From an uncultured Christensenellaceae bacterium (GTDB lineage Bacteria > Bacillota > Clostridia > Christensenellales > UBA3700), in NCBI GenBank assembly GCA_910588545.1, contig CAJUOU010000001.1:547975-611974 (forward strand): a DNA stretch of 64,000 nt, read 5' to 3'. Position 1 is the stretch's first letter. Each line of letters opens with the position of its first letter. This document shows positions 41,944-55,964 of the stretch, piece after piece. The notes beneath the pieces are model-generated. The model was not told the DNA's origin. It did no database searches and was given only the letters and a program-made list of their open reading frames with translations. Position numbers and translations under genes: made by a program.

Positions 41944-42369
41944 TTACTTTTTATTAGGTTTTCTTTTAATGCTCAACAGTCTAACAAAATCATTAAACAA
42001 TGAAGTGTCCGTTGGCTCAAACATTATCCATTTCCCATCGTGGTAAGTGTGGGTATTGTCATATATTTCTTGAACTTCTTTTGAATAATTAGTTCTACTT
42101 TCTTCAAATTTTGCACGTTCGTCTTTCCCTAAAATAACCATAAAACCTAAGCAATTTTCTTTTGCATAAAGTGCACAAAGCGTTTTACCGCCTCGACGAT
42201 ATTTATACTCATAATCCCAAGCCTTACCGCCTTTATTCCATACACACTCCATATCGTAGTTTTCATTGATTAAAGCACATAACTTATTCCAAATATCGTA
42301 TAGATTCTCCCCAATCAAGGCAAACATTTCTTCTCTCGTAGGTTTAATATCAATCATAATTAACTCCAA
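41944..42369 (-). CDS. DUF3788-like protein
   Basis: 141 aa; WNKGGKAWDYEYKYRRGGKTLCALY recalled as typical of DUF3788. Confidence 0.55.
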   Translation of the reverse strand: MELIMIDIKPTREEMFALIGENLYDIWNKLCALINENYDMECVWNKGGKAWDYEYKYRRGGKTLCALYAKENCLGFMVILGKDERAKFEESRTNYSKEVQEIYDNTHTYHDGKWIMFEPTDTSLFNDFVRLLSIKRKPNKK

Positions 42370-42396
42370 TTTATATCAACATTTATTTTAATTTTG

Positions 42397-42927
42397 CTAA
42401 TTTTGTATACTTTTGCACAAACTCTGTTTTAGCGTTAGTATAAGCATCTCTGTCAATTCATATTTTTTCCATAGCTTTATTTTCAATTCTTCATACTCTT
42501 TTGCAATGTCGGGATTATCGATTAAATAATTTTTAAAATAAACCTCGTCAATATCACCCTTTAATCGTAAATGAATATGGTATACTTTTTCAGCAAAGCC
42601 ACTTTCTGTATATCCTTTGTTCAGTGCCATCCGATTATCTTTTTCGGACATAATTATATACCCATTCTCTTTCAAAATATTTGTAACCTGGCTCATTTGA
42701 TTGCAAGTGTCAACTGCCACTATAATATCGATTATTGGTTTAGCCATAATACCGCTTATGGCAGTACTGCCGATATGATAAAAATCAATAGCTTGTGGCA
42801 AAATATTTTTTAAATTTTTCACTTCCTCATTGTACCAATCAACCCAATATGTTTTATGGTTTTCTAAAAAAATGGGGAATAATTGCCATAGCTCTTCAAG
42901 CGACATTTCCGATAATTTTTTACTCAT
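42397..42927 (-). CDS. GrpB-family protein, C-terminal frameshift
   Basis: HIGSTAI...AKPIIDI motifs. After ...KLWKKYE the expected DRDAYTNAKTEFVQKYTKLAKLK continues in another frame, ending at 42383. Confidence 0.75.
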   Translation of the reverse strand: MSKKLSEMSLEELWQLFPIFLENHKTYWVDWYNEEVKNLKNILPQAIDFYHIGSTAISGIMAKPIIDIIVAVDTCNQMSQVTNILKENGYIIMSEKDNRMALNKGYTESGFAEKVYHIHLRLKGDIDEVYFKNYLIDNPDIAKEYEELKIKLWKKYELTEMLILTLKQSLCKSIQN

Positions 42928-43094
42928 TTTAATTTTGCTCCGCTTTTTATATTATACCATACAAAAACCTTAAATGCAATATATAAAATCTTTGACATAC
43001 ACACTTTTCACATGTAAATGACAAAAAATAAAAAGTACAAACTTTTAGCCCATACTTTTTAAAATTATGTATCCAAGATATTACAAAACAACTA

Positions 43095-43682
43095 CTAATC
43101 AAATACTATACTATAAATATTTTTATTAGCTATTTTTTCAAAATACTCTTTTAATTCTATATTTTTATCCCATTTATCATGTGGATAATAACCATATCGA
43201 TTTTTCACGTCTTGCATACGTAATTCTATCTCAACCACTCCGTCAGCAGTCCCCAAAGCATCACAAAGTTGAATCAGCTTGTCATAATCGTCATACTCCA
43301 ACGTCAAAAGTTCATTTTCAAGTTCTTTTTGTTCATCTAAAGAAATATCGAAATTTCCTATATATGAGTGCATATCCTTAATGCCGAACGAATGTGTCAA
43401 GCATATTCTTGCGACTTGAAAATATCCTAATTTCAACATATATTTATACCCGTCATAAACATGCCCCAAATGGCGCGTCCCAAACTTTCTACCTATATCA
43501 TGCAATAATCCCAATACATACGCTTTTTCGCTATCCATACCACATGCATCGGCAATTTTTTGAGCGCAAATAGCAACATAACGACTATGGTTGCTCCATA
43601 GCCCTATATTGTGTGTTTCAGCTTCTTTTAACAACTCTTCCGCTGCTTTACGTGAAGGTAATCCTGTATCAAATTCATTCAT
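43095..43682 (-). CDS. HD-domain phosphohydrolase
   Basis: 195 aa; H...LLHDIGR motif. Confidence 0.8.
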   Translation of the reverse strand: MNEFDTGLPSRKAAEELLKEAETHNIGLWSNHSRYVAICAQKIADACGMDSEKAYVLGLLHDIGRKFGTRHLGHVYDGYKYMLKLGYFQVARICLTHSFGIKDMHSYIGNFDISLDEQKELENELLTLEYDDYDKLIQLCDALGTADGVVEIELRMQDVKNRYGYYPHDKWDKNIELKEYFEKIANKNIYSIVFD

Positions 43683-43836
43683 ATAAATATTTTAACACAG
43701 TTAAACAAAAAAATCAAATTAACTAAACAAAGCATGCAGATGTTTTTTTTGCTATACCAAAATTCGAAGCAAAATGCTGGTTTTCAATGGCATTTCTACG
43801 GCTTATCACGACACAATTACAAATCAAAAATGGCAT

Positions 43837-43866
43837 AAAAAAACCACTAGACTACTTGCCTAGTGA
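43837..43866 (-). terminator. tRNA-operon terminator (copy in attL)
   Basis: cactag/ctagtg hairpin followed by T7 on the minus strand, just 3' of tRNA-Tyr. Confidence 0.7.
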
Positions 43867-43868
43867 TT

Positions 43869-43953
43869 TGGTGGGCAGGGGTGGATTCGAACCACCGAAA
43901 GCGCTGCTGACGGATTTACAGTCCGTTCCCTTTGGCCACTCGGGAACCTGCCC
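43869..43953 (-). tRNA. tRNA-Tyr (GTA), 85 nt with long variable arm and encoded CCA; left copy
   Basis: Reverse complement GGGCAGGTTCCCGAGTGGCCAAAGGGAACGGACTGTAAATCCGTC...GGTTCGAATCCACCCCTGCCCACCA folds as a class II tRNA with anticodon GUA. Confidence 0.9.
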
Positions 43954-43960
43954 ATATAAA

Positions 43961-44008
43961 TGGAGCTGGTGATCGGAATCGAACCAACAACCTGCTGATT
44001 ACAAATCA
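43961..44008 (-). pseudogene. 3' fragment of tRNA-Thr (TGT), from the anticodon loop to CCA, displaced by integration
   Basis: Identical to the 3' 48 nt of the intact tRNA-Thr at 54229-54304. The 5' half is missing. Confidence 0.9.
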
Positions 44009-44085
44009 AGCAAATAAAATGTGTAACCAATAACGCAAAGCGACCATACTATTTCTTTATTAGGAATAAAAAACTTTTCTCGTGA

Positions 44086-44222
44086 CACAAATTCCCCGCC
44101 CCTTGGGGCTTTATACAGGTGGAATTTGTGCAAATGCTCATAGGCGGTAGGACCAGCAAGGACCTACAAATCAACCCGATAGCCGAGCCCAAAGGAAGTC
44201 GCAGCGCGACGACTGCGGGAGT
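44086..44222 (+). other. GC-rich, hairpin-dense non-coding segment (candidate single-strand origin or structured RNA)
   Basis: 10-bp stem cacaaattcc/ggaatttgtg enclosing gcccc/ggggc, then gtagg/cctac and cgcag/ctgcg or gtcgc/gcgac stems. No plausible ORF. GC far above the local background. Confidence 0.4.
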
Positions 44223-44248
44223 AAAAAAGGGACTAATTCACTAGCCCC
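44223..44248 (-). terminator. terminator of the xre-lipoprotein operon
   Basis: Minus strand ggggctagtgaattagtccc followed by T6. Confidence 0.65.
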
Positions 44249-44257
44249 TTTGTTTTA

Positions 44258-44878
44258 TTAATTTGACGAAACATAAAAACCACAATCAGTGCAAACTTTA
44301 ACATTTGTAAAATTTATTTCTTTATATTCCTCATAAAAAAATCTAAAATCGCCATAAGCAGAAGTTGAACTAAAATAAATAGTTATATAGTCATTTTTGC
44401 TATTTGTTTTATGTGAAGTAATTTTTGCAGAAATTAAATTATTATGTTTACAATTACGCATCTCATTAGTTTTTTTTGCTTTTAATTTTACAAAATTTTC
44501 TGGGTTTTCATCAGACCATCCTGTACAAATTACTTTTGCGTGGTCATATTCTTTTGTTGTTTGTAAAGGTATATATTTTGAGTATAAACCATTCATAGGT
44601 ACTTCATTTTCAAATGTTTCAATTATTTTTCCGTCTAAATATAAATCACATTTATATTTTATAGCATTTAATTTTATATCAGAGTCGTGACAAATATCAA
44701 TCATATAATATTCGATTTTTCCTGTATCAGTATTTGTAGAAATGCCTGTTAAATTTGCTGTAGCAATAATATAATTATCTTCAACAAAGTATTTACCTTT
44801 AGGCAATGTACAGCTTGTTAATAAACATAGGCAAATAGACATTATTAAAAGTATAAATATATTTAAAATTTTTTTCAT
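44258..44878 (-). CDS. lipoprotein, unknown function (element-encoded, co-transcribed with the repressor)
   Basis: 206 aa; signal peptide with lipobox LLTSC. Its start is 1 nt after the xre stop. Confidence 0.7.
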   Translation of the reverse strand: MKKILNIFILLIMSICLCLLTSCTLPKGKYFVEDNYIIATANLTGISTNTDTGKIEYYMIDICHDSDIKLNAIKYKCDLYLDGKIIETFENEVPMNGLYSKYIPLQTTKEYDHAKVICTGWSDENPENFVKLKAKKTNEMRNCKHNNLISAKITSHKTNSKNDYITIYFSSTSAYGDFRFFYEEYKEINFTNVKVCTDCGFYVSSN

Positions 44879-44879
44879 A

Positions 44880-45164
44880 TCATTTACCTACCTTTATGTT
44901 AGAATTAGAAACGTTATTAAAGCTATTTGATATATGTACTGCTCTATTGTTGTAATCATTTAAACAAAGAATTTCGTTAGCGTCTAAGTCTAAAATAGCG
45001 CATAAGTTTGCTAGCGTGTCTAAAGCAGGCATTTTTTTTCCATGTACATAACAAGATATTTGTGTTTGATTAATTCCTAATGCTTGAGATATTTGTTGTT
45101 GAGTTAAACCACTTTGTTTTATTGCTTCTGCAATTTTTTTTTGTATTTGAATTAAACTTATCAT
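44880..45164 (-). CDS. XRE-family HTH repressor
   Basis: 94 aa from ATG 45164 (GAGGAG SD); LTQQQISQALGINQTQISCYVHGKKMP HTH_3 pattern. The longer track ORF (to 45347) crosses the promoter region. Confidence 0.85.
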   Translation of the reverse strand: MISLIQIQKKIAEAIKQSGLTQQQISQALGINQTQISCYVHGKKMPALDTLANLCAILDLDANEILCLNDYNNRAVHISNSFNNVSNSNIKVGK

Positions 45165-45188
45165 ATTGCTCCTCTTTTGTAAAAATTT

Positions 45189-45264
45189 TACCCGATAGGT
45201 ATAAAAAAAATCTTGACTTATACCTATTGGGTATGTTACTATTATAGTATACCTAATAGGTATA
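45189..45264. promoter_or_regulatory. divergent promoter region with three related operator palindromes
   Basis: tacccgataggtata (45189-45203), tatacctattgggta (45219-45233) and tatacctaataggtata (45248-45264) share TATACCTA/TAGGTATA half-sites. TTGACT at 45213-45218. Confidence 0.65.
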
Positions 45265-45297
45265 AATATTTTTAAACAAAAAGGAGCAAACAAACAA

Positions 45298-45663
45298 ATG
45301 GAATTTAATTGGAAAGACAAAGAAATAGAACTGCAAGAGCAAATCAAAAAATGCGTTAAGGAATATAACGATTATATCAAGACAGATTTTGCTCAATGTT
45401 TAGCAAATGGTAATAAAGATTATGGCAAAGACTTTACTGCCGTATTATGGTGGAATGGCAAGAATATTGAGGTTTATGAATGTGGTCCATTAAAAGATTT
45501 TAAACACGGTCCAAAATCTATTATAGATTTTTATCATTTTTCAAAAGCACGAACAAAAGTAATTATTTGTAGTACTGGTGAGGATATAACTGACAAAGTA
45601 GAAATTAACCCACTTTATCGAGATATTTTTGACGATAAACTTTTAAAGTCGCTTAACATTTAA
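45298..45663 (+). CDS. hypothetical protein (element early gene)
   Basis: 121 aa, AAAGGAG SD, no motif recognised. Confidence 0.6.
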   Translation: MEFNWKDKEIELQEQIKKCVKEYNDYIKTDFAQCLANGNKDYGKDFTAVLWWNGKNIEVYECGPLKDFKHGPKSIIDFYHFSKARTKVIICSTGEDITDKVEINPLYRDIFDDKLLKSLNI

Positions 45664-45675
45664 GGAGCAATAAAA

Positions 45676-46008
45676 ATGGAAACAGTTTTAAATATTGTTG
45701 TGAAAGAACCAGGCAAAGCCCCCGAAGTTAAATTAATTAAACATGATATTGAGGAATTTCAAAAAATTGTTGGTGGATTATTTGATATGGTCCGTGTACC
45801 ACTTATGGAAGATATGATTTATATGGTATGTAATGATACCGGCAAATTGGATAACTTACCTTTTAATTTTTACGAGCCTGCAAGATACGACGTTATAGTT
45901 GGTAATGTATTTTTTGTTGCAGGAGATTATGAAGGCAATACATTAAGTTTAAATAAAAATCAAATTGAAAAAATCAAAAGTTATCTGAGTTATCAGACAC
46001 TTTGGTAA
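45676..46008 (+). CDS. DUF3846-like protein
   Basis: 110 aa; VVKEPGKAPEVKLI...QKIVGG...VCNDTGKLDNLP...VGNVFFVAG matches the remembered DUF3846 pattern, common on mobile elements. Confidence 0.55.
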   Translation: METVLNIVVKEPGKAPEVKLIKHDIEEFQKIVGGLFDMVRVPLMEDMIYMVCNDTGKLDNLPFNFYEPARYDVIVGNVFFVAGDYEGNTLSLNKNQIEKIKSYLSYQTLW

Positions 46009-46037
46009 TAAAAATTAATTTTTAGGAGGAATGAGCA

Positions 46038-46334
46038 ATGTTTTCATTCAAAACAAAAAACGGTAAAGAAGTAACAATTTATGACCCATCAGAACGTGGT
46101 GCAATGTATGCAAATGATTTAAAGAATGGCACAAATATTAATGGCCAAGAATTATCAAAAAATCAAAAAGCATATCGAGCGGGATATTTAAAGGCACAAA
46201 ACGATAATGCAAAAGCATATAATGCCCGTAAATTTAAAGAAGAAAATCCTGACTATAAAAATAAGTTAAAACATTCTGTAGCAGAGATTAAAAAGCAACG
46301 AAAAAAAGAGTCTAAAAAAGGTGATAAAAAATGA
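46038..46334 (+). CDS. small basic protein, unknown function
   Basis: 98 aa, K/R-rich C-terminus, GGAGG SD. Confidence 0.6.
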   Translation: MFSFKTKNGKEVTIYDPSERGAMYANDLKNGTNINGQELSKNQKAYRAGYLKAQNDNAKAYNARKFKEENPDYKNKLKHSVAEIKKQRKKESKKGDKK

Positions 46335-47119
46335 GCAAGGCAAAAATAATAGCAATAAAAATAGTAGTTTTTTTGTTGATTATAGCAGTAGTTTTAACAA
46401 TTAGTTATTTTTTTCATGGTTTAATGTACGATTTAATTCATAAACCTACAGCAGACGTTCCTCTACAAGATATAGTCGAGCCTGAAAAGCCAAACAATGA
46501 AGATAATTCAAATGTTGTTGCAAAAGAACTTGTAAGCAAAACTATTGTTAGTGAAAAATATGGAACTTTTGAAATACCTGTCAATAGTATGCTTTTGTCA
46601 AATACGACCAATAATCTAATTTTTGCTGATACTACTGATTTTAATTATATTTTTGATAAAGAAATTGAAAAATTAAAAGACAATAAAGACATTACTGCTG
46701 AATCTACTTTTGTATTTAAATGTAAAAGAGATAACCTTCTTTCAGATATATTAAATGGTACTAATGTTAATGTTCCGAGCGGAAATTGCTATTTTGTTAT
46801 TGAAAATCAAAAAATTCAGTATTCATTTTCAGATAATTTATATGAAAAGATTTATCCATTTTTGATATATGATTCTATGACATTAGCAATATCATTGCCT
46901 AATGATGAAATTACCCCTTTTCAAGAAATTGATGTGAATTTTTATTGTAAGTCATTATATTTAAATGAAACTATTGAAGATTATGCAGGAGAATTAACTT
47001 TAGAATTATATTTTTCAGATGTAATAATTTCTGACACCGGCTGTCCTCTTACTGACTATATATTTGAAGAGATTATGTCAGACGAAACAACAAAAATTAT
47101 TTATAATTATGCAGAGTAA
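46331..47119 (+). CDS. N-terminally membrane-anchored protein, unknown function
   Basis: 262 aa; a single TM (IIAIKIVVFLLIIAVVLTISYFF). ATGA overlap with the upstream gene. Confidence 0.65.
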   Translation: MSKAKIIAIKIVVFLLIIAVVLTISYFFHGLMYDLIHKPTADVPLQDIVEPEKPNNEDNSNVVAKELVSKTIVSEKYGTFEIPVNSMLLSNTTNNLIFADTTDFNYIFDKEIEKLKDNKDITAESTFVFKCKRDNLLSDILNGTNVNVPSGNCYFVIENQKIQYSFSDNLYEKIYPFLIYDSMTLAISLPNDEITPFQEIDVNFYCKSLYLNETIEDYAGELTLELYFSDVIISDTGCPLTDYIFEEIMSDETTKIIYNYAE

Positions 47120-47131
47120 GGAGTAACAGAT

Positions 47132-48454
47132 ATGAGTAACAAAAAAATTAAAATCATAGCGATAATACTTGTTTTAATCTTAATTTTATCTACAGGTTTT
47201 GGTCTTGTAGCCCATTATTCTAATTGGTTTACAAATTGGGATAAGTTTAATCCGTTTAATTGGGGTAAAAATGACCAAGACAATAAACAAGATAAATTTT
47301 TCGCTGGTGCTTATGTAAACCCAAGTATCAACAAAGGCATTTCTGTTGTAAGTTCAGCTATAGCAGCTGAAGATTTCGAAAGTAATAATATTTCGGCTGA
47401 AGCTGATGCAGGATATACATTAACTGCTACACTTCAATCAAACCAAACACGTAATATGCAAATAGATTGGTTTGTATCATGGCAAAAAGAATCTGATTGG
47501 AGTAATGGTAAAAATGTTTCCGATTATTTAACTTTAAATACTACAACTACTCAGAGTGGCGAAGCTGTAATTTTAACATGTCATAAAGACTTTGCCGAGA
47601 AAATTAATATTGTAGCAACATCTAATTTAGATAAAACTAAAAAAGCTTTTTGTGTAGTTGATTATATTAAAAAAGTTAAATTTATTAATTATAGAATTGG
47701 CGAAACTGAATTTAGTAATATAAGTTTACATAGTATAAATTTTATTCATGCTAATGTACCATGCTATGTTTATTATGAACCGGTATATTCTGAAAATTAC
47801 ACTTTAAATGTTGATTATGAATGTGAAGTTGTAGGTAAATTTACAGATACTTTTGGATATGGTCAAGACCAAATATATGGTAATGTTAATAGCGAAAATA
47901 AATTTGCTTTTTCTAATGGTGCATCAATTTATGATTTATTACCATTGACAGAAGAAATTAAGTCTTTTGTATTAAAGCTTATAGAAGCTCGTTCATATAC
48001 AGAAGATGGATATATAAATGGAGTTTTTTACATTGATTATATTGACGAAGTAATTGCAGAATATGATTTAGTTTATCAGAATATTTCATCTGAAGATAAA
48101 AAAAATAGATATGTAGAAGCTGCTTGTTTTTTATATTATACTCTTAAAGGACTGAGAGAAAATGGCAAAATAAACTTACATTATTTTAAATCTTATGTGG
48201 ATACTCATGCTCCTCTTGAGGATTTTTTAACAGTAATAACTTTTAATTTTATGAATTTAAATTTGTCGAATGTAGAAGAATTTGTTGAAAGACTTAAACA
48301 ATGTGCTCAAAACGGAGTTGGTGTAATGGAATATACGTTAACATATACCGCCGCTGATATTGTTTATACTACAAGTATTCAATTTGGATATAATGAGTCT
48401 TCTTTAAATGTATTCAATGTAAATGTAGATTTACCACCAAATATAGTAATTTAA
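47132..48454 (+). CDS. N-terminally membrane-anchored large protein, unknown function (candidate structural)
   Basis: 440 aa; a single TM (IKIIAIILVLILILSTGFGLVA); AAGGAG SD. Confidence 0.65.
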   Translation: MSNKKIKIIAIILVLILILSTGFGLVAHYSNWFTNWDKFNPFNWGKNDQDNKQDKFFAGAYVNPSINKGISVVSSAIAAEDFESNNISAEADAGYTLTATLQSNQTRNMQIDWFVSWQKESDWSNGKNVSDYLTLNTTTTQSGEAVILTCHKDFAEKINIVATSNLDKTKKAFCVVDYIKKVKFINYRIGETEFSNISLHSINFIHANVPCYVYYEPVYSENYTLNVDYECEVVGKFTDTFGYGQDQIYGNVNSENKFAFSNGASIYDLLPLTEEIKSFVLKLIEARSYTEDGYINGVFYIDYIDEVIAEYDLVYQNISSEDKKNRYVEAACFLYYTLKGLRENGKINLHYFKSYVDTHAPLEDFLTVITFNFMNLNLSNVEEFVERLKQCAQNGVGVMEYTLTYTAADIVYTTSIQFGYNESSLNVFNVNVDLPPNIVI

Positions 48455-48511
48455 TATTTCTTCCCCATAAAAGGCGTTGGCAGTCCTTGTAAAAAACAAT
48501 CTGCTACAATT

Positions 48512-48582
48512 AGGACGTATAATTATGTATTTTCATTTTGTTTGTTTCCTTAATACATTGATTTAAAGTTATTATACGTCCT
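48512..48582 (+). other. 12-bp perfect inverted repeat with nested 7-bp stem, in the only intergenic gap of the structural block
   Basis: aggacgtataat (48512-48523) pairs with attatacgtcct (48571-48582). Inner stem atgtatt (48525-48531) pairs with aatacat (48552-48558). Followed by ttaatttttt. Confidence 0.5.
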
Positions 48583-48602
48583 TTAATTTTTTAGGAGTAA
48601 TT

Positions 48603-49070
48603 ATGAAAAAATTATTTTTTATATTGATTTTAATAGTATTTGTTTTTATTTTTTGTGTTTCTTGTACTGAAGATTCTTCAGACGTAAATATTGACGTTGA
48701 TTATACCTCTAATTTGAGTATTGATAACATATCGAATAACAATATTGAAATTCAATATACTTTGATACCAAGTGAAGCATATAAAGCAAATAATATTCCT
48801 AATGATACAATTTGTGCTTATATCTTTTCTGCATCGATATTGAGTGATAATTTAGAAGATAAAAGTTTATATTGGGATATATTTTGGTGTGACCCAACGA
48901 TAACAAATGATACAAATAATTATATTATTGTTGAACGTACAAGTGAGACAACTGCAAAAGTTATATGTAAAAAAGGCTTTAGAGTACCTTTAACTTTGAA
49001 AATTACAAGTAATACTAATCCAGATATAAATGCGAGCTGTAATATTAATTATGTATTAAAGGAGTTGTAA
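48603..49070 (+). CDS. secreted lipoprotein, unknown function
   Basis: 155 aa; signal peptide with lipobox FCVSC; GGAG SD. Confidence 0.65.
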   Translation: MKKLFFILILIVFVFIFCVSCTEDSSDVNIDVDYTSNLSIDNISNNNIEIQYTLIPSEAYKANNIPNDTICAYIFSASILSDNLEDKSLYWDIFWCDPTITNDTNNYIIVERTSETTAKVICKKGFRVPLTLKITSNTNPDINASCNINYVLKEL

Positions 49071-49071
49071 A

Positions 49072-50493
49072 ATGCAAAATAAAATGAAATATAAAAATTA
49101 TACTATTGCATTAATTATCGTTTTGATATTAGCAATAGCGTTTAATGTTTTTAGCTTAATATTATCTAAAGTTTATGCAGAAACTTCCAATAGCACAAAC
49201 GTTTTAACTGATTTACAAAAAGACCCTAATTTTAAAGTGTCAGACTATCTAGACAAGTCGGATGACTACTCAATTCAAATTATTCAAATTGCAGAAAGTA
49301 CTGCTAAAGAATTACTTATATATACATTTCAGCCTTGCCAGCGAACTCATTATTTAGTAGCAACTTGTGTGAATATGTCATTGTCTAAAAATGTTGCTGG
49401 CACAAATTTATATAATTTGGAATTGTTAAGTCAAGAAGGCGTTTTTTGCAAGTATAAAGTCATGGACGTTGTAGTTACTGATACAGACTATAGATACTAT
49501 AACATAACTTCAATTTATCGTGCTTGGAATGAAGATTTAGACGACCCAAGTGGCAATGACAATACAATTAATGGTATTGCTTATGCTGTTGGAAAATTAT
49601 ATAAAGCTTCTACTGTTGACGGAAAAGTTACATATACTCATGAATTTGTGGAAACTATAGAAATAGTAAATCCTTATGTAGGTTTTTTAACTTATAGCAA
49701 TGGTTTTTACTTATGGGCAGAATCTTGCAACTCACATTTTATTGCTTTTGATACTGATAAACAGATTGATTTTTTAATGGAAGCAGATGTTTATTACACT
49801 TTTCAAGATTTTAGAAAAGACACAGGCACTATTAATGACGGCGAAAAGCCTTTAAGCAAACCCGAAGAAACGAAAAAAACTGTTACTTATATTGAAAAAG
49901 GCGAAACATTAGATTATGGAGTTTTTGCTGAAAAATTTACATGGAATCGTATTTCAAAAAGCGAAGATTTTATCAATGATAAAGACAATAATTTAACGCA
50001 AAATGCTAAAGACCAAGTGGGCAAAACAAAATGGGTATTGCGATTTGTTGAAACAAAATATAATTTTGTTAATAGTGGAATGGCTGGTTGTTCTGAAACT
50101 TATACCAAAATTGAGAATGTCTCTATTTTAAGGTTGAAATTTGTTACAAACGGACGTCTTTATGATTTAGGAGCTGTTTCAAATAAAATAACCAGCGATA
50201 ATGTTCCAGATGGTGGTCAATCAAATAAGTGGGATGTTTTCGGTTGGCTTGTCGATAAGAGTGGTATACCTGTTTGGGCATTTATATTAATTATTGTGTT
50301 GATATTTTTAGCAATTTTATTGCCTGTATTAGGGCTTATATTCCCTGTTGTTGGACAAGCCCTTAAAGTAGTATTTAAAGCAATAGGAAAACTAATTAAA
50401 TGGTTATTTAATGCTTTAGTTTGGATAATTTCTTTGCCAATAAAAGGTATTGTTTGGATAGTAAATAAATGTAAAGGTGGTGGCACTGCGTGA
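49072..50493 (+). CDS. secreted protein with C-terminal membrane anchor (pIII-like topology; candidate adsorption/minor coat protein)
   Basis: 473 aa. N-terminal signal (…SKVYA/ETS) and a hydrophobic C-terminal 90 aa. Placed immediately upstream of the Zot-like gene, as gIII/gVI are in inoviruses. Confidence 0.55.
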   Translation: MQNKMKYKNYTIALIIVLILAIAFNVFSLILSKVYAETSNSTNVLTDLQKDPNFKVSDYLDKSDDYSIQIIQIAESTAKELLIYTFQPCQRTHYLVATCVNMSLSKNVAGTNLYNLELLSQEGVFCKYKVMDVVVTDTDYRYYNITSIYRAWNEDLDDPSGNDNTINGIAYAVGKLYKASTVDGKVTYTHEFVETIEIVNPYVGFLTYSNGFYLWAESCNSHFIAFDTDKQIDFLMEADVYYTFQDFRKDTGTINDGEKPLSKPEETKKTVTYIEKGETLDYGVFAEKFTWNRISKSEDFINDKDNNLTQNAKDQVGKTKWVLRFVETKYNFVNSGMAGCSETYTKIENVSILRLKFVTNGRLYDLGAVSNKITSDNVPDGGQSNKWDVFGWLVDKSGIPVWAFILIIVLIFLAILLPVLGLIFPVVGQALKVVFKAIGKLIKWLFNALVWIISLPIKGIVWIVNKCKGGGTA

Positions 50494-51311
50494 TTTGTAT
50501 AATCTTTGCTCCACCAAGGACCGGTAAAACGTGTTTTTTAACTCACGTGTTAAATACTTATATGTTTGATAATGCTCGTAATTACAAAATGCAACAAGAG
50601 ATAAGACAAAAGCAAGTCAACGGCTTTGAATTTATTAAAACAATACCGCAACATTGTGTATCTAGTAATTACGGAGTTACCGGGTATAAGTTCAGATACT
50701 CTACTCGTCATAGCCGAATAATAAACCCGTACAAGTTAGGTTTTAAAAATAAATGGGTTGAAACTCATTTTAACTTGCCTTATGAAGTGATAGGTATTAC
50801 AGAAGCACAAAAGTACTTAAATAGCAGAATGTCGCAGTACTTCCCTGATTGGCAAAGCCGTTGGTATGAACAGCACGGCCACAATTATTTAGATATATTT
50901 CTTGATACTCAACGTCCGGGTTTAATAGACGTTAATATTCGAGAATTATCTCACTTTATAGAAATTATTAATCTTAAGAAAAAGTACGATAAAAATGGTA
51001 ATATTACAGCTCTGACTTGGACCATTAGGCATATTGATAATAATGCATTATATGAGCGATATATTTCGAGTGGTAAAAAAGACAGTGCGTGTTATGAACA
51101 ATTAATTGTAACAGCAAATTATAACGTTTTTGAGTGTTACGAAAGTACATGCTGCAAGCCTAAATTTTATCAAGGACATTTTGAGGAAGATATAGACTAT
51201 TTGTTTTCTTCTCAAACGGAAGAAACTTTGGACGGATATATTGAGTATTTGAAAAACAATGACGACGAATTGCCGGACAATTTTTATCAAAAAAGGAGTT
51301 TAAATAAATGA
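50490..51311 (+). CDS. Zot/pI-family assembly ATPase (N-terminal ATPase domain only, no TM segment)
   Basis: 273 aa. N-terminal Walker A APPRTGKT, VIGITEAQKYLNSR (compare LDECG/IDEC Walker B) and QHGHNYLDIFLDTQRPGLIDVNIRE (compare HRHxGWDIxxxTQ...R of Zot/M13 pI). GTGA overlap with the upstream gene. Confidence 0.7.
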   Translation: MICIIFAPPRTGKTCFLTHVLNTYMFDNARNYKMQQEIRQKQVNGFEFIKTIPQHCVSSNYGVTGYKFRYSTRHSRIINPYKLGFKNKWVETHFNLPYEVIGITEAQKYLNSRMSQYFPDWQSRWYEQHGHNYLDIFLDTQRPGLIDVNIRELSHFIEIINLKKKYDKNGNITALTWTIRHIDNNALYERYISSGKKDSACYEQLIVTANYNVFECYESTCCKPKFYQGHFEEDIDYLFSSQTEETLDGYIEYLKNNDDELPDNFYQKRSLNK

Positions 51312-51637
51312 TTTTTCATAAAAACGATTTAATTAATGAAACGTTGGACAAGCATTTTGCGACATGGATGCACACTTTGAATACCGCAGATTTTGTACCA
51401 AAAAAGTATTTAAACTATGTGGACCGAATTATTTTTGAAAATCTTAAGAAAAAGTTAAAAGAGGTAGATATTTATAACCTACTTTACTTGGAATTACAAG
51501 GCTATAAATTAGGTTTTTTTGACAAACTTAAGATAAGTTTTTCCGGTATTAGACCATTGTTTGAAAATGAACTTCAAGCAATACTTAAGGCTCAAGAGAA
51601 ATCTGCAGAACAACAAAATAAAATCGAAAACAAATAA
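51308..51637 (+). CDS. hypothetical protein
   Basis: 109 aa, ATGA overlap with the Zot-like gene; no motif recognised. Confidence 0.55.
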   Translation: MIFHKNDLINETLDKHFATWMHTLNTADFVPKKYLNYVDRIIFENLKKKLKEVDIYNLLYLELQGYKLGFFDKLKISFSGIRPLFENELQAILKAQEKSAEQQNKIENK

Positions 51638-51678
51638 AATGCTCGCCCCCATTGAGCAAAAGGGGAAAGGAAATATAT

Positions 51679-52074
51679 ATGAACAAAATTGAAATCATTG
51701 GCAGATTAACTGCCGACCCGCAACTTAAGGTCATTAATGGCGACGTGCAAGTTTGCACTTTCACTGTAGCAGTAAATCGAAGATTTAACCGAGAAGAAAC
51801 TGATTTTTTTCCTGTGACAGTTTGGAGAGAAACTGCAATAAATTGCAATAAATTTTTAGCAAAAGGAAATCTTGTCGGAATATGCGGCTCATTGCAAATA
51901 CGAAAATATGACGATAAAGATGGTATCAAACGTATCGCTGTAGATTTGCAGGCAGACGAAGTTGATTTTTTGACTCCTAAAAGTGAAAATGATTCTACTG
52001 ATAAATCAACAGAAAATAAAACTCCAAGTGTTAGCGAACTTAAAGAAGTTGAAGACGACGATATGCCATTTTAA
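51679..52074 (+). CDS. ssb: single-stranded DNA-binding protein
   Basis: 131 aa from ATG 51679 (GGGGAAAGGAAA SD). MNKIEIIGRLTADPQL OB-fold N-terminus and a DDDMPF acidic tip. Confidence 0.92.
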   Translation: MNKIEIIGRLTADPQLKVINGDVQVCTFTVAVNRRFNREETDFFPVTVWRETAINCNKFLAKGNLVGICGSLQIRKYDDKDGIKRIAVDLQADEVDFLTPKSENDSTDKSTENKTPSVSELKEVEDDDMPF

Positions 52075-52085
52075 GAGGTGTATCA

Positions 52086-52892
52086 ATGAACAACCAAATT
52101 TTATTTAAAGAGTGGTTGAAAGATTTTTACGAGTACAAAAGTAAGAGAGTTAAGCCTAGTACTCTAAGAAATATAGGCATAGTGATTAGGTGTCACGTGC
52201 CTATATTTTTATACAACACTCCCCTTGTAAAAATAACAGACCAAGACTTGGAAAAAATGATATATGACGTTAAAGCAATGCGTATGCGACAATACACTTA
52301 TCAAGTCATTAATGAGGCTTTAGATAGGGCTGTAAAACGTAATATAATTGATTTTAACCCCATAACTAATTTGGATAGCATAAAACATAGACAACGTAAA
52401 GGACGTGCTTTAAACGCCGTAGAACGGGCTAAATTGCTTGAAAAGGTACAGCAACCTACTTTAAGGTTATTGTTCGAATTTTACATTTATAGCGGTTGTA
52501 GACGTTCAGAGGCATTATCTTTGACTTGGGACGATATAGATTTTGCAGGCAAAAAAATTATTATTCCCGGTACAAAAACTGAAGCAAGCGAAAGAGTGTT
52601 GCCAATGTCAAAACCTTTGCTTGAGATAATGAAAAAGTTGTCGCACAGTGCGACAACAAATAAGGTTTTTAACTACTCTCCAGATTATGTTTCTAAACAA
52701 TTTAAAAAGTATTGTCCTAAGCATAAACTACATGATTTAAGACATACTTTTGCGACAATATGTCTTGAAAGTGGTGTCAGTATTCGCGTTGTACAAAAGT
52801 GGTTGGGACATACCAGCATTGATACTACAGCAAGAATATATACACATGTAATTGACGAATTTCAACGTCGAGAAGCAGACAAAATATGTTAA
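52086..52892 (+). CDS. tyrosine site-specific integrase
   Basis: 268 aa; R...HDLRHTFAT...LGHTSIDTTARIYTH (R-H-R-Y catalytic pattern). Confidence 0.92.
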   Translation: MNNQILFKEWLKDFYEYKSKRVKPSTLRNIGIVIRCHVPIFLYNTPLVKITDQDLEKMIYDVKAMRMRQYTYQVINEALDRAVKRNIIDFNPITNLDSIKHRQRKGRALNAVERAKLLEKVQQPTLRLLFEFYIYSGCRRSEALSLTWDDIDFAGKKIIIPGTKTEASERVLPMSKPLLEIMKKLSHSATTNKVFNYSPDYVSKQFKKYCPKHKLHDLRHTFATICLESGVSIRVVQKWLGHTSIDTTARIYTHVIDEFQRREADKIC

Positions 52893-53794
52893 AGTATGAA
52901 GATTTAAAAAAGCGCATATATTATAATGAAAAATACATAGTGCCTAAGTTAAAGGCTGTTGAACAGGATAAACTTGCATTTAATATTGAGAATTGTTCGA
53001 AAACAAGTTGCATTGCGACTTGTTCCGGTTGTGGCGCTAAATATTATGCTGGCTCAAGTTATTGTAAATCAAGATATTGTGCTGTTTGCGCTAAACTTAG
53101 GGCATTGGCATGGCTTTGCAAGTTGGTCCCGTTGCTTGAGCAATATTCTAGCAATGGATATAAACTTTTTATGTTAAATTTTACAATAAAAGACCATAAG
53201 GACCTTGACTACATACTTAATAAGTTAATGAAAAGTTGGCGAATAATGACACATGACGATAAACGTTCTAAGAAAGAGTTTCGTCGCCTTAATGACGGGG
53301 GTATAAAATCTCTTGAGATTAAAATAGGCGAAAACTCTGGAATATGGCATCCTCATATACATAGTATAGTGCTTTTAAAGACTGAAGAAAAAGTCTACCA
53401 ATACAATGATTATAGAAAACTTTGGGAATATTGCTCTGCTCTTGCTTATGGTACAACTGACAAAGTCGGGAGTGTTGATATACGAGGACTTAAGGGGTAT
53501 AAGGGAGATATTGTATCCGCTGTAGTTGAAACATTTAAGTACATGACTAAACTAGATTGGTTAAATATCCCGGATGAACAATTACGTGAATTGTTTAAAG
53601 TTACAAATAATAGACGTTTTATATCTTCTTGGGGTGTACTTTATCGAGTTAATCAGCAAGTAGAGGCATTATTAAACGAAACTAGCGAAGATAAATTAAA
53701 AAATATGGCTTGTAAAGTCTGCGGTTGTACTGAGTTTGAACTTGAAAACCATTTAACTAAAATGTTGTCAGCAGACATACTTGATTTAAAATAG
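52886..53794 (+). CDS. rolling-circle replication initiator, pC194/pUB110 (Rep_1) type HUH endonuclease
   Basis: 302 aa; CKSRYCAVCAKLRALAW (compare CxxRFCPxCxWRR), FMLNFTIKD (motif 1), WHPHIHSIVLL (HUH), ETFKYMTK (Ex3Y catalytic pair). Confidence 0.85.
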   Translation: MLKYEDLKKRIYYNEKYIVPKLKAVEQDKLAFNIENCSKTSCIATCSGCGAKYYAGSSYCKSRYCAVCAKLRALAWLCKLVPLLEQYSSNGYKLFMLNFTIKDHKDLDYILNKLMKSWRIMTHDDKRSKKEFRRLNDGGIKSLEIKIGENSGIWHPHIHSIVLLKTEEKVYQYNDYRKLWEYCSALAYGTTDKVGSVDIRGLKGYKGDIVSAVVETFKYMTKLDWLNIPDEQLRELFKVTNNRRFISSWGVLYRVNQQVEALLNETSEDKLKNMACKVCGCTEFELENHLTKMLSADILDLK

Positions 53795-53805
53795 TAAGCA
53801 AAAAA

Positions 53806-53830
53806 AACGGGAGGTTTACCCCCGTTTTTT
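53806..53830 (+). terminator. terminator after rep
   Basis: aacgggagg-ttta-cccccgtt followed by T6. Confidence 0.75.
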
Positions 53831-53882
53831 GCTTGCTATTTTGAATTTTTACAAAAGCCAGATTTAAAATTTTGCTAAAATA

Positions 53883-53967
53883 ATGTGCATGTACGCGCGC
53901 ATATACACACGCACACCCGTAATTAATACACGTACGCGCACTTGCCAGCGCGCACGCACGCACGCAT
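53883..53967. repeat. three perfectly alternating purine-pyrimidine (CG/CA) tracts: 34, 16 and 20 nt
   Basis: 53883-53916, 53926-53941 and 53948-53967 alternate R/Y without exception. GC-rich island in about 30% GC DNA. Confidence 0.9.
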
Positions 53968-53982
53968 TTTTTGTTTTTCTGT

Positions 53983-53989
53983 CTTGATA
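53983..53989 (+). promoter_or_regulatory. candidate double-strand-origin nick site CTTGATA
   Basis: tttttctgtCTTGATAatat resembles the conserved pC194/pUB110 dso nick region. It lies about 190 nt downstream of rep on the rep coding strand. Confidence 0.6.
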
Positions 53990-54093
53990 ATATAGAAATA
54001 AGTGGGGTAAATGTTACACTTTGTTACCATAATTAAATAAGTGGTATTTTAGGCTAAAATTTAGGTAAAAAATAGGACTTTAAGACTAAGGCT

Positions 54094-54276
54094 AAAAATG
54101 GCATAAAAAAACCACTAGACTACTCGCCTAGTGATTTGGTGGGCAGGGGTGGATTCGAACCACCGAAAGCGCTGCTGACGGATTTACAGTCCGTTCCCTT
54201 TGGCCACTCGGGAACCTGCCCATATAAATGGAGCTGGTGATCGGAATCGAACCAACAACCTGCTGATTACAAATCA
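54094..54276. repeat. 183-bp direct repeat, right copy (attR)
   Basis: See the left copy. It ends inside the anticodon loop of the intact tRNA-Thr. Confidence 0.95.
54137..54221 (-). tRNA. tRNA-Tyr (GTA), right copy
   Basis: Identical to 43869-43953. Confidence 0.9.
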
Positions 54277-54304
54277 GCTGCTCTGCCAATTGAGCTACAC
54301 CAGC
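54229..54304 (-). tRNA. tRNA-Thr (TGT), intact; integration target
   Basis: Reverse complement GCTGGTGTAGCTCAATTGGCAGAGCAGCTGATTTGTAATCAGCAGGTTGTTGGTTCGATTCCGATCACCAGCTCCA; anticodon loop tTTGTAa. Confidence 0.92.
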
Positions 54305-54369
54305 ACATTTTCATGTGTTTTTGCCAATTTTAATTAATAAAATCAACAACTTATTTCCAATCTATTGAT

Positions 54370-54445
54370 TGGTGCCTCGGGACGGAATCGAACCATCGAC
54401 ACAGGGATTTTCAGTCCCTTGCTCTACCGACTGAGCTACCGAGGC
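54370..54445 (-). tRNA. tRNA-Phe (GAA)
   Basis: GCCTCGGTAGCTCAGTCGGTAGAGCAAGGGACTGAAAATCCCT...CACCA. Confidence 0.92.
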
Positions 54446-54454
54446 TTAAAAAAA

Positions 54455-54531
54455 TGGCGATCCGGAAGAGACTCGAACTCTCGACCTCTAGCGTGACAGG
54501 CTAGCGTTCTAACCAACTGAACTACCGGACC
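54455..54531 (-). tRNA. tRNA-Asp (GTC)
   Basis: GGTCCGGTAGTTCAGTTGGTTAGAACGCTAGCCTGTCACGCTAGAGGTCGAGAGTTCGAGTCTCTTCCGGATCGCCA. Confidence 0.92.
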
Positions 54532-54553
54532 ACATAAAATGGTTTAAATATAT

Positions 54554-54630
54554 TGGTGGGCCATCAAGGACTCGAACCTTGGACCGATCGGTTATGAGCC
54601 GATTGCTCTAACCAACTGAGCTAATGGCCC
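54554..54630 (-). tRNA. tRNA with CAT anticodon (elongator Met, or Ile2 if lysidinylated)
   Basis: GGGCCATTAGCTCAGTTGGTTAGAGCAATCGGCTCATAACCGATC...CCCACCA. The 1:72 pair is G:C, so it is not an initiator. Confidence 0.85.
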
Positions 54631-54642
54631 ACGAGCAATATT

Positions 54643-54719
54643 TGGTCGGGGTGAAGAGACTCGAACTCCCGGCCCCATGGTCCCAAACCACGTGCGCTAC
54701 CAAACTGCGCTACACCCCG
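54643..54719 (-). tRNA. tRNA-Pro (TGG)
   Basis: CGGGGTGTAGCGCAGTTTGGTAGCGCACGTGGTTTGGGACCATG...CCCCGACCA. Confidence 0.92.
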
Positions 54720-54760
54720 TCGCCATCGTGTCATTTGGCTTTTAGCCTTACGACTTATTT

Positions 54761-54789
54761 ATAATACAATATAATTTTATATTTGTCAA
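54761..54789 (-). promoter_or_regulatory. promoter of the tRNA operon (TTGACA-17-TATTAT)
   Basis: Minus strand cTTGACAaatataaaattatattgTATTATaaat, about 40 nt upstream of tRNA-Pro. Confidence 0.6.
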
Positions 54790-55125
54790 GAGTTTTTTCA
54801 AAATTTTTTTAAAATTATTTTTTTAGTTATAAATTTCCTAAAAACACAAGCAAATCAAGCTTTTTACCACACTATTTATTAACTTTTTTATTGATATAAT
54901 ACCATTTGGAAAAATAAAAATACTTAATTAATACAAACATTATGCTAATGTATAGTAAATAACAGGATTTATAAAACATTGATAACTAATTAAAGCTAAA
55001 ATAACTCTTGTAAAATACTATATAATAAAGATAATCTTGTTTATAAATATTTTTATACTACCACTACCCTATACACAAAACAACAAAATAATAATTATTA
55101 GATTATATTAATTTACTTTAAAGTA

Positions 55126-55154
55126 TTGACATTTGCGAGCAAAATATGTATAAT
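55126..55154 (+). promoter_or_regulatory. consensus promoter (TTGACA-17-TGTATAAT)
   Basis: ttgaca at 55126-55131, 17-nt spacer ending in tg, tataat at 55149-55154. Confidence 0.7.
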
Positions 55155-55197
55155 TATAGTATTAATTTATCCCTATGGGGGAAAGGAGATTTTATAT

Positions 55198-55812
55198 ATG
55201 AATACACAAGAGCAAAATATTGCAGAAAAAAAATTAATTAATTTAACAATTTTCAGCCCTGTAAATGTATCTGTATATTACAATACAAAATCAACATTAC
55301 TTATGTCAATCGACTTAAATACAGGTATTAACAACGATACTAAAGAAATTATGAGCGAAGACAATTTTAAATTGATTTTTGTCACTCACGGATTTGAAAA
55401 AAGTATCAACTTTATTGCAAAGCCAGCTGATTTCCAAGCTAGATACGAATTCAATTTGGCAGATATGTTAACTCAAGAAGAAATCGTTTCTTCTTACGAC
55501 AGAGAGGCTGCTATTTACTTTATCAATATCGAGCCAAATGGTTATGCTTTTGAACAAATGCAATCTGTTGCTGAAGAAGGAGATATCGAATTACTTCACA
55601 ACAAATTGATTGAATTATCTGCTATTGAAGAAAGCGATGCTCATAACGATTACCTAATTGCTTGCTGTGCAATGGCACTTGGTAAAAATGCAGAAAAATA
55701 CAATAAACCTGAAGAAGTTGATGTAATTCGCTCTGTTTATGAAAATTATAATTCTAAAGAAACTTATGGTTATATTTTTGAGAAATTCATAAACGAAAAT
55801 AACGAGCAATAA
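55198..55812 (+). CDS. hypothetical cytoplasmic protein (204 aa)
   Basis: ATG 55198 after a GGGGGAAAGGAG SD. The longer track ORF starts at the TTG of the -35 box. No motif recognised. Confidence 0.65.
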   Translation: MNTQEQNIAEKKLINLTIFSPVNVSVYYNTKSTLLMSIDLNTGINNDTKEIMSEDNFKLIFVTHGFEKSINFIAKPADFQARYEFNLADMLTQEEIVSSYDREAAIYFINIEPNGYAFEQMQSVAEEGDIELLHNKLIELSAIEESDAHNDYLIACCAMALGKNAEKYNKPEEVDVIRSVYENYNSKETYGYIFEKFINENNEQ

Positions 55813-55826
55813 TTTAACATATAATT

Positions 55827-55857
55827 AAAGTGCTATTTAAAAATAGCACTTTTTTAT
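55827..55857 (+). terminator. rho-independent terminator
   Basis: aaagtgctattt/aaatagcacttt followed by a T-run. Confidence 0.8.
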
Positions 55858-55964
55858 TTTGCAAACAATAGAAATTTTTTATTATATATCTCAAATAGTT
55901 ATAAATAAAATTGACATAAATACCCACTTTTGTTATAATAAATTGAAAATATTTAAAAGAGGTT

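Follow-up and report, generated by a model that had tools for sequence, protein, structure and literature searches.

Background

In inoviruses, according to Roux et al. (2019), pI is the sole conserved marker, and the genes for replication and integration are exchangeable. One inovirus replication family, of 206 members, is labelled RCR (rolling-circle replication) / B5 Rep / Rep_1 in the supplementary table of that study, which also describes inovirus prophages with tyrosine recombinases that are integrated at tRNA genes of monoderm hosts, and counts the att sites located in tRNA genes. Phage B5 (Bifilivirus B5, Paulinoviridae) is a cultured filamentous phage of a Gram-positive monoderm host. 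Inovirus-like elements are already known to be pervasive, and one more prophage of this kind would be no surprise. Here, we analyzed a stretch of 64,000 nucleotides (the window; contig CAJUOU010000001.1, positions 547,975 to 611,974) from an uncultured Christensenellaceae bacterium, also a monoderm, in which an element of about 10 kb is inserted at the end of a tRNA operon. It is probably a temperate, inovirus-like (Tubulavirales-type) rolling-circle single-stranded DNA (ssDNA) element, integrated at tRNA-Thr(UGU) in an uncultured, low-GC gut Clostridia host. Its novelty is moderate: a Zot/pI-type ATPase and a small partner protein are the only conserved core of its lineage, and it belongs to a subgroup with no gene for a small transmembrane (TM) coat protein. 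The lineage that it represents is very large and barely annotated, and is found mostly in the gut bacterial order Christensenellales; we found no paper linking inoviruses with Christensenellales.

Results and discussion

Precise integration at the end of a tRNA operon

A repeat search revealed two direct repeats of 183 nucleotides, spaced by 10,268 nucleotides, which differ at one base (T43857 in the left copy and C54125 in the right copy). Their content is nucleotides 29-76 of tRNA-Thr(UGU), the whole of tRNA-Tyr (located in both copies by ARAGORN and Rfam), and 43 nucleotides downstream with a terminator-like hairpin. Contigs of the same species were fetched via the flanking HD-domain protein, and one of these, L010, from another strain of the carrier's species, represents the empty site. 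It matches positions 42000-44008 of the window at 100% identity and 54094-57000 at 99.97%, and it holds exactly one copy of the 183 nucleotides, so that the insert is a precise 10,085 bp. An earlier note, made from the sequence alone, had described an insert of about 10 kb bounded by 183-bp direct repeats and had proposed a search for empty sites in relatives; the former is now confirmed with a single mismatch, and the latter shows that the gene block is not present at this locus in all strains.

The attB of L010 is identical to attL and differs from attR at C54125; therefore, at least positions 1-32 of the attR copy were derived from attP, and the crossover lay to the right, toward the anticodon loop of tRNA-Thr. 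The block of identity begins in the anticodon stem-loop of tRNA-Thr(UGU), at tRNA nucleotide 29, and extends through the 3' end of the tRNA. Together with the catalytic residues of the integrase (R...HDLRH...H...Y in the translation), this is the pattern of a tRNA-targeting tyrosine integrase. On the right side, ARAGORN and Rfam located a full Pro-Met-Asp-Phe-Thr-Tyr tRNA operon on the minus strand, and the Rfam scans gave nothing besides the tRNAs. Because the element brings a replacement for the 3' part of tRNA-Thr, for tRNA-Tyr and for the terminator, attR keeps the operon intact, and the idea that the element interrupts the operon does not really hold.

The exact HD-domain protein of the flank was found on 145 contigs and the exact proteins of the element on 17-18, so the presence of the element is strain-variable. 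A related element occupies the same tRNA-Thr/Tyr site in another species (L016), with an identical boundary, CTGCTGATTACAAATCA. In short, the element is integrated and mobile. That it is a decaying prophage remnant, no longer mobile, is extremely improbable: a circular form was not detected in the collections scanned, but all 14 open reading frames (ORFs) are intact, the repeats differ at only one base, the empty site is isogenic, and the 17-18 contigs (against 145 for the flanking gene) carry identical copies.

In two other strains of the same species (L009 and L012), homology to positions 43000-43883 of the window ends at 43883, which is 15 nucleotides inside the 3' end of tRNA-Tyr, and the site is occupied by a different element, which encodes a serine recombinase of 515 aa along with a TetR regulator; integration thus has a hotspot at the end of this tRNA operon.

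The ATPase and its small partner

The 273-aa P-loop protein is a Zot/pI-type ATPase, as indicated by four independent routes. First, it matches PHROG 197 ('Zot-like toxin') at 4.9e-6. Second, all 23 of the aligned relatives match PF05707 (best 3e-6), and no other family was matched consistently. Third, the family profile matches the N-domain of Neisseria Zot (PDB 2r2a) at 2.1e-7, and in this alignment the segment QHGHNxLDIFLDTQRP pairs with THRHQGIDIFVLTQGP. Fourth, a Foldseek search with the AlphaFold model (predicted local distance difference test, pLDDT, 73) gave 2r2a as the best match (1.4e-8), and 'Zonular occludens toxin' entries of uncultured Inoviridae were among the best matches in BFVD. 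The Zot-like nature that the earlier note had read from the same segment thus stands on agreement among PHROG, profile and fold, with Pfam by itself below threshold. A C-terminal TM helix and an extracytoplasmic domain, by which a Zot/pI protein is defined in the strict sense of the Ff phages, are missing: the maximum hydropathy over 19 residues is 0.87, versus 1.31 for the TM segment of M13 pI, and the relatives of the ATPase are all about 260-290 aa in length.

The stop codon of the ATPase gene overlaps with the start of the gene for a 109-aa partner protein, homologues of which were found by tblastn in 80 of 88 related loci. These homologues, of 80-125 aa, pair a conserved N-terminal domain (HKNxLIN..YYETF..TLDTADFVPEKY) with a variable and very basic tail; the 109-aa protein itself gave no family match and has no TM segment.

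An acidic motif, NDDELP(D/E)NFYQKR, is conserved in the family at the C-terminus of the ATPase (residues about 255-270; positions 51240-51300 of the window). It resembles the C-terminal tip, DDDMPF, of the SSB of the element, and may be a docking motif.

Rolling-circle replication and recombination genes

Of the motifs that the earlier note had pointed out, HxxR...Y in the integrase, HUH (HPHIH) and Ex3Y (ETFKY) in Rep, and the DDDMPF end of the SSB are all readable in the translations, and the proteins concerned match PF00589, PF01446 and PF00436, respectively; the DUF3846 domain that it had listed for checking was likewise found by PF12957, whereas the number of ORFs is 14 and not 13 (Table 1). 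Rep exceeds the PF01446 cut-off of 33.2 bits by far (75.9 bits; 4.4e-21), and among plasmids its closest relative, at 31% identity, is the Rep encoded by a Thermoanaerobacterium plasmid of 1.9 kb.

Downstream of rep lies a block containing CTTGATA, the conserved nick site within the dso (double-strand origin) of Rep_1 proteins (PMC10378824). Because this 7-mer by itself is not rare in the window, the assignment of the origin is based on position and conservation: the 44-nt block is kept in L002, L003 and L004, elements that are only about 79% identical overall to that of the window, apart from a single base substituted after the nick motif and a further one, in L002, near the 3' end. The block is accordingly a predicted Rep_1 dso, and CTTGATA its predicted nick site. 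A blastn search of the block against plasmids gave only weak, 30-nt matches to small staphylococcal plasmids (E >= 0.2), which are not usable. The strand to be nicked carries the coding sequence of 12 of the 14 genes, an arrangement also found in filamentous phages, and the order in the excised circle would be rep, origin, attP and a hairpin-rich region. This region has an ssDNA fold of -35.3 kcal/mol (z = -3.35) and contains a long hairpin, CACAAATTCCCCGCCCC...GGTGGAATTTGTG, which is kept in L002 and L003; it is a candidate minus-strand origin. A tract of about 80 nucleotides, ACGCGCGCATATACACACGCAC...GCGCGCACGCACGCACGC, is found just upstream of the origin block in a genome of 30% GC, and a similar tract exists in L002-L004.

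A Rep_1 protein and a dso of plasmid type would also suit a non-viral, integrative rolling-circle plasmid or mobilizable element, in which the ATPase and the membrane proteins act in DNA transfer between cells or at the surface and particles are not made. Plasmids and integrative and conjugative elements commonly carry a bacterial SSB, DUF3846 and cargo such as toxin-antitoxin pairs or lipoproteins, and the failure to find a coat gene or an IMG/VR relative points in the same direction. However, no match to a relaxase, a coupling protein, VirB4 or another type IV secretion ATPase, or any other transfer gene was detected with Pfam or PHROG in the 14 proteins, and the ATPase consistently matches only Zot, both by sequence and by fold. 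Furthermore, relatives have an Ff-like structural module, and one of them is known as a circular genome, which its depositors entered as a virus. We therefore regard the plasmid alternative as quite improbable.

Membrane proteins and the coat gene

The element has a small genome (10.1 kb) with short, mostly uncharacterized genes (seven of the 14 have no family match) and one main coding strand. One of its products, a membrane protein of 473 aa, has more than 1,000 homologues, and the stop codon of its gene overlaps with the start of the ATPase gene. In position (just before the Zot-like gene) and in topology (a signal and a C-terminal anchor), it agrees with the 'pIII-like' protein of the earlier note; Foldseek with the AlphaFold model (pLDDT 84.9), however, yielded only generic beta-sandwich noise, as did a PDB profile search, so 'pIII-like' refers to topology alone. 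The 440-aa protein is weakly similar (tblastn E = 0.007) to a bajarodino virus 12 protein of 352 aa, the 'major tail protein'; this virus is a circular 9.8-kb fecal genome deposited as Inoviridae. This genome shares the ATPase, the 473-aa protein and the integrase with the element, and thus supports the viral reading.

A small single-TM structural protein, one of the inovirus criteria of Roux et al. (2019), was found in many relatives but not in the element. In a crude hydropathy scan, every ORF of 25-130 aa with a hydrophobic 19-mer lies inside a larger ORF, and no small TM gene exists in the non-overlapping gene set of the element or of the roughly ten relatives that share the 473-aa protein. 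TM families of 52 aa and about 65 aa were, on the other hand, recognized in 17 and 15 of 85 related loci, respectively. Visual inspection had suggested that the membrane region at the C-terminus of the 473-aa protein was the relatives' 52-aa TM protein in fused form; hidden Markov models of the 52-aa and 65-aa families gave no match to the 473-aa protein at E <= 10, and this idea was dropped. Because one of the defining features is missing, we do not place the element as a plain member of the inoviruses. Of the lysogenic filamentous or ssDNA phage proposed in the earlier note, what remains is an integrated, recently mobile element of about 10 kb with integrase, Rep_1, SSB, XRE repressor and Zot/pI-type ATPase; because of the missing coat gene, the filamentous virion is only putative.

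Several other results weigh against the inovirus-like reading. Its ssDNA and its particle are predicted from genes. The match of the ATPase to PF05707 (Zot) reaches only 15.2 bits (E-value = 0.015; cut-off, 20.3 bits), and hhalign gave no significant score for the ATPase family against the single sequence of M13 pI or B5 Orf8, even though it aligned M13 pI in register. For the 473-aa protein, PDB offers no meaningful fold match (Foldseek TM-score about 0.1), no 30-90 aa single-TM ORF exists in the element outside larger ORFs, and no excisionase was identified among its genes. Scans of IMG/VR with the single ATPase protein and with an alignment and invariant peptide returned no relative; the pattern expected of an attP junction (right end-att-left end) was absent from IMG/VR and the JGI metagenomes, and no element-sized contig with terminal overlaps was found.

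The missing coat gene could also mean that the element is a virus but not a classical filament, forming pleomorphic or membrane-derived particles, or having a larger or unrecognized coat, studded with the 473-, 440- and 262-aa proteins and loaded with DNA by the Zot-type ATPase. Pleolipoviruses combine a Rep, a spike protein with a signal peptide and a C-terminal anchor, and a soluble NTPase, and the layout of the element resembles theirs. The gene is missing not only from the element but also from some ten relatives of the subgroup and from bajarodino virus 12, and neither the ATPase nor its partner has a TM segment. In addition, a 2026 preprint on Dehalococcoides IME1 reports pI-like ATPases, along with small TM proteins, in budding archaeal viruses as well. 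However, budding is hard to picture in a host lineage with a cell wall, small TM proteins are present, in an Ff-like position, in sister elements whose ATPase is 64-71% identical, and the model of the 473-aa protein matches no solved fusion or spike protein. Such a particle is improbable in our judgment, and the inovirus-like reading is preferred.

A large lineage in Christensenellales

Relatives of the ATPase form more than 769 protein clusters at 90% identity, nearly all of 270-275 aa, and 363 clusters of similar length at 50% identity (E <= 0.001). In the GTDB contigs with one genome per species, 172 stretches encode a relative; the best 80 of these are almost all from Christensenellales or from metagenome-assembled genomes (MAGs) of unnamed gut Clostridia, and include the cultured Pumilibacter muris CLA-AA-M08, P. 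intestinalis CLA-AA-M10 and Anaerocaecibacter muris CLA-AA-M11. Nearly all of the ATPase relatives listed lack a precomputed Pfam domain in the protein database. Together with the empty IMG/VR scan, this implies that virus catalogs may miss the lineage. A megablast search of the whole element against GenBank phages also gave no match.

When the 14 proteins of the element were searched by tblastn against the 88 loci, only the ATPase (61-81% identity among species representatives) and the downstream gene (about 45-50%) were common throughout. The remaining genes are mosaic: Rep_1 was detected in five loci, L005 encodes a Rep that matches Pfam REP_ORF2-G2P, in most loci two other replication-position families take the slot after the ATPase, and tyrosine or serine recombinases come and go. 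In many relatives the order is a basic protein, an OB-fold-like protein, TM proteins of about 65 aa, 52 aa and about 430 aa, large proteins, the ATPase, its partner and Rep, an arrangement that resembles gV-gVII/gIX/gVIII-gIII-gVI-gI of M13/Ff.

Since elements with and without small TM genes coexist in the lineage, with ATPases 64-71% identical, the element might be a satellite that keeps the ATPase, anchor proteins, Rep and integrase and borrows small coat proteins from a co-resident relative. Some genomes do hold two close elements: L016 and L017, on one contig (CAJTYW010000001.1, Christensenella sp. MGBC121002), are two different elements of the lineage within about 15 kb. Both, however, are without small TM genes, no second element is visible in the 64-kb window, and bajarodino virus 12 was found as a stand-alone circle; we consider a satellite very improbable. 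The elements of L002 and L003 are on element-only contigs that break inside the repeat, which fits either an assembly break or a circle.

A more general proposal, speculative and in our estimate unlikely, is that the subgroup (the element, some ten relatives including those of the cultured Pumilibacter strains, and bajarodino virus 12) spreads as a virus without a small coat protein of the pVIII type, be it by a particle of large membrane proteins, by a coat of a new kind, or as satellites borrowing coats. The soluble Zot-type ATPase and its basic-tailed partner of 80-125 aa would then be the universal core of DNA export. The cultured mouse-gut isolates named above carry relatives and give experimental access to the lineage, so that the export of DNA through a Gram-positive envelope by a Zot-type ATPase with no anchor, and here with no small coat protein, becomes a question open to experiment.

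Proposed life cycle

The operator-like sequence TACCNNNNNGGTAT has exactly three exact matches in the window, all of which lie in the gap that separates the repressor gene from the first rightward gene and overlap with a rightward promoter-like site (TTGACT-18-TACTAT, 45213-45242) found by a promoter scan. The XRE repressor beside operators, also mentioned in the earlier note, was thereby recognized again, and from strong family matches we infer a lysogeny switch as well as the replication chemistry of the element. Integration itself was a recombination, by the tyrosine integrase, between a 183-bp attP and the end of the Pro-Met-Asp-Phe-Thr-Tyr operon. In the lysogen, the repressor would bind the three palindromic operators over the rightward promoter and silence the long plus-strand operon. 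On derepression, the integrase would excise a circle of 10,268 bp, Rep_1 would nick the plus strand at CTTGATA and drive rolling-circle synthesis of plus-strand ssDNA, the SSB of the element would coat this strand, and the hairpin-rich region just past attP would prime the complementary strand.

It is reasonable to hypothesize that the Zot-type ATPase carries out the export. The ssDNA would be passed to a membrane export or assembly complex powered by the soluble ATPase, which may be tethered by its 109-aa partner, by the cytoplasmic C-terminus of the 473-aa anchor protein, or by both, and the DNA, accompanied by the membrane-anchored proteins of 262, 440, 155 and 473 aa, would exit from the cell with no lysis.

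Other features of the element and its surroundings

The positions of all features are summarized in Table 1. The two families to which the 98-aa hydrophilic protein belongs are represented in 33 of the 85 related loci. The intergenic hairpins of the structural module (fold z = -1.96) are kept in L003, L002 and L016, where the second stem has changed in a compensatory way (AGGACGTATA/TATACGTCC versus GAGCATATA/TATATGCTC); they may serve as packaging signal, terminator or origin. The 206-aa predicted lipoprotein has no match in Pfam or PHROG. At its place, L003, the ATPase of which is 97% identical, has a ParE/RelB toxin-antitoxin pair (271-890), and the site beside the repressor is therefore regarded as a cargo slot.

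The host has a low GC content (about 30%) and is known only from MAGs such as GCA_949066975.1. Outside the element, positions 20297-21442 of the window encode a homologue of the sporulation protein YqfD, adjoining phoH, with 146 bits against a cut-off of 257 bits. This was the only hint of sporulation among 20 chromosomal proteins scanned with NCBIfam, so that the spore former of the earlier note is plausible on one sub-threshold match. A 385-aa patatin-like phospholipase (25221-26378) has weak matches to a cGAMP-activated phospholipase (3e-10) of CBASS, the cyclic oligonucleotide-based antiphage signaling system, and to an anti-phage phospholipase (1e-4), both far below the cut-offs.

Table 1. 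Features of the integrated element, with positions in the window
Feature	Position	Strand	Remarks
attL	43826-44008		183-nt direct repeat; displaced tRNA-Tyr (43869-43953, - strand), 3' 48 nt of tRNA-Thr (43961-44008) and operon terminator hairpin (43841-43869)
Hairpin-rich, relatively GC-rich non-coding region	44030-44257	+	Candidate single-strand (minus-strand) origin
Predicted lipoprotein, 206 aa	44258-44878	-	Signal peptide ends LLTSC; cargo slot
XRE-family repressor, 94 aa from internal Met	44880-45164	-	HTH_19/HTH_3, about 8e-10; PHROG transcriptional regulators
Three palindromic operator-like sites	45189-45263		TACCNNNNNGGTAT at 45189, 45221 and 45250
121-aa protein	45298-45663	+	First gene of rightward operon; no family match
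DUF3846 protein, 110 aa	45676-46008	+	PF12957, 2.6e-23; PHROG 3777, 5e-17
98-aa hydrophilic protein	46038-46334	+	Lys-rich tail; motif AYRAGYL.AQ.D.AKA; families F22 and F8
262-aa protein	46331-47119	+	One N-terminal TM helix; putative envelope/virion protein; no family match
440-aa protein	47132-48454	+	N-terminal TM helix; family F23, clusters with 155-aa protein
Conserved intergenic hairpins	48455-48602	+	TGGCAG-17 nt-CTGCTA, and AGGACGTATAAT...ATTATACGTCCT
155-aa protein	48603-49070	+	Lipoprotein-like signal peptide; family F23
473-aa membrane protein	49072-50493	+	N-terminal signal/TM helix, all-beta ectodomain, C-terminal helical anchor (about 390-467)
Zot/pI-type P-loop ATPase, 273 aa	50490-51311	+	No TM segment; Walker A APPRTGKT; Walker B-like IGITEAQ
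109-aa partner protein	51308-51637	+	Conserved N-terminal domain, variable basic tail; family F1
SSB, bacterial type	51652-52074	+	PF00436, 2.4e-27; PHROG 44, 6e-41; ends DDDMPF
Tyrosine integrase, 268 aa	52086-52892	+	PF00589, 6.4e-27; PHROG 1, 1.4e-65
Rep_1 (pC194-type) rolling-circle initiator	52886-53794	+	N-terminal Cys cluster, HPHIH, ETFKY
Terminator-like hairpin after rep	53784-53846	+	Inverted repeat I19, 22 nt, 91% complementary
GC-rich alternating purine-pyrimidine tract	53884-53966		Adjoins origin
Predicted double-strand origin block	53975-54018	+	TTTTCTGTCTTGATAATATAGAAATAAGTGGGGTAAATGTTACA; nick motif CTTGATA at 53983-53989, in the stretch TTTTCTGTCTTGATAATATAG
attR	54094-54276		183-nt repeat; part brought by the element restores tRNA-Thr (54229-54304) and adds tRNA-Tyr (54137-54221) and terminator

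Comparison with known systems

The earlier note had held the combination of a plasmid-type Rep_1, a Zot without a TM segment and a tRNA-targeting integrase to be uncommon and perhaps undescribed. This is not so, since phage B5 already pairs a Rep_1-like Rep with a pI-like ATPase lacking a TM segment, Roux et al. (2019) describe both the Rep_1/B5 Rep family and tRNA-integrated prophages of monoderms, and bajarodino virus 12 has the ATPase and the 473-aa protein. In B5, Orf6 (485 aa) has an N-terminal signal and a C-terminal anchor like the 473-aa protein (a topology also seen in M13 pIII) and is followed by Orf8 (308 aa), a pI-like P-loop ATPase without TM segments, which in turn precedes Rep; the latter (Orf9) aligns with the Rep of the element across the HUH region (E-value = 2e-7). 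However, hhalign detected no similarity between the ATPase family and the single Orf8 sequence, B5 is only 5.8 kb long and has no integrase, repressor or SSB, and the element has no counterpart of its 90-aa two-TM protein or of its small TM structural genes, three in number (27, 32 and 57 aa).

The pC194/pUB110 plasmids share with the element a Rep_1 protein with HUH and catalytic E...Y motifs, and CTTGATA in a conserved origin block. However, they are non-integrating, of 2-5 kb, and without a module of ATPase and membrane proteins. With M13 and CTXphi, the element has in common the Walker A, DEAQ-like and HRHxGxDIxxxTQ-like motifs in the same order, the position of the ATPase after large adsorption or anchor proteins and, by prediction, rolling-circle replication of the plus strand. 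In contrast, M13 pI contains a TM helix plus a periplasmic domain and acts together with a secretin, whereas the ATPase of the element has no TM segment and no secretin is present; M13 has a gII-type Rep and a gV-type SSB in place of the pC194-type Rep and the bacterial-type SSB; and equivalents of pVII, pIX and pVIII are missing in the element. The inovirus prophages of Roux et al. (2019) are like the element and its lineage in toxin-antitoxin cargo, att sites in tRNA genes, swapped RCR and recombinase modules, a pI-like ATPase as the sole marker that is conserved, and an RCR family of the Rep_1 / B5 Rep label, but single-TM proteins of 30-90 aa are a defining feature there and none was found here.

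Bajarodino virus 12 (PQ006185; 9,828 nt, from rodent feces), for which we found a sequence record only and no paper, has no detectable homologue of Rep_1, SSB, DUF3846 or the 109-aa partner. It does, however, have an ATPase of 266 aa without TM segments (32% identity), a 541-aa anchor protein that is 34% identical to the 473-aa protein (E-value = 4e-79), a tyrosine integrase (26% identity) and a repressor, and, like the element, no obvious small TM coat ORF.

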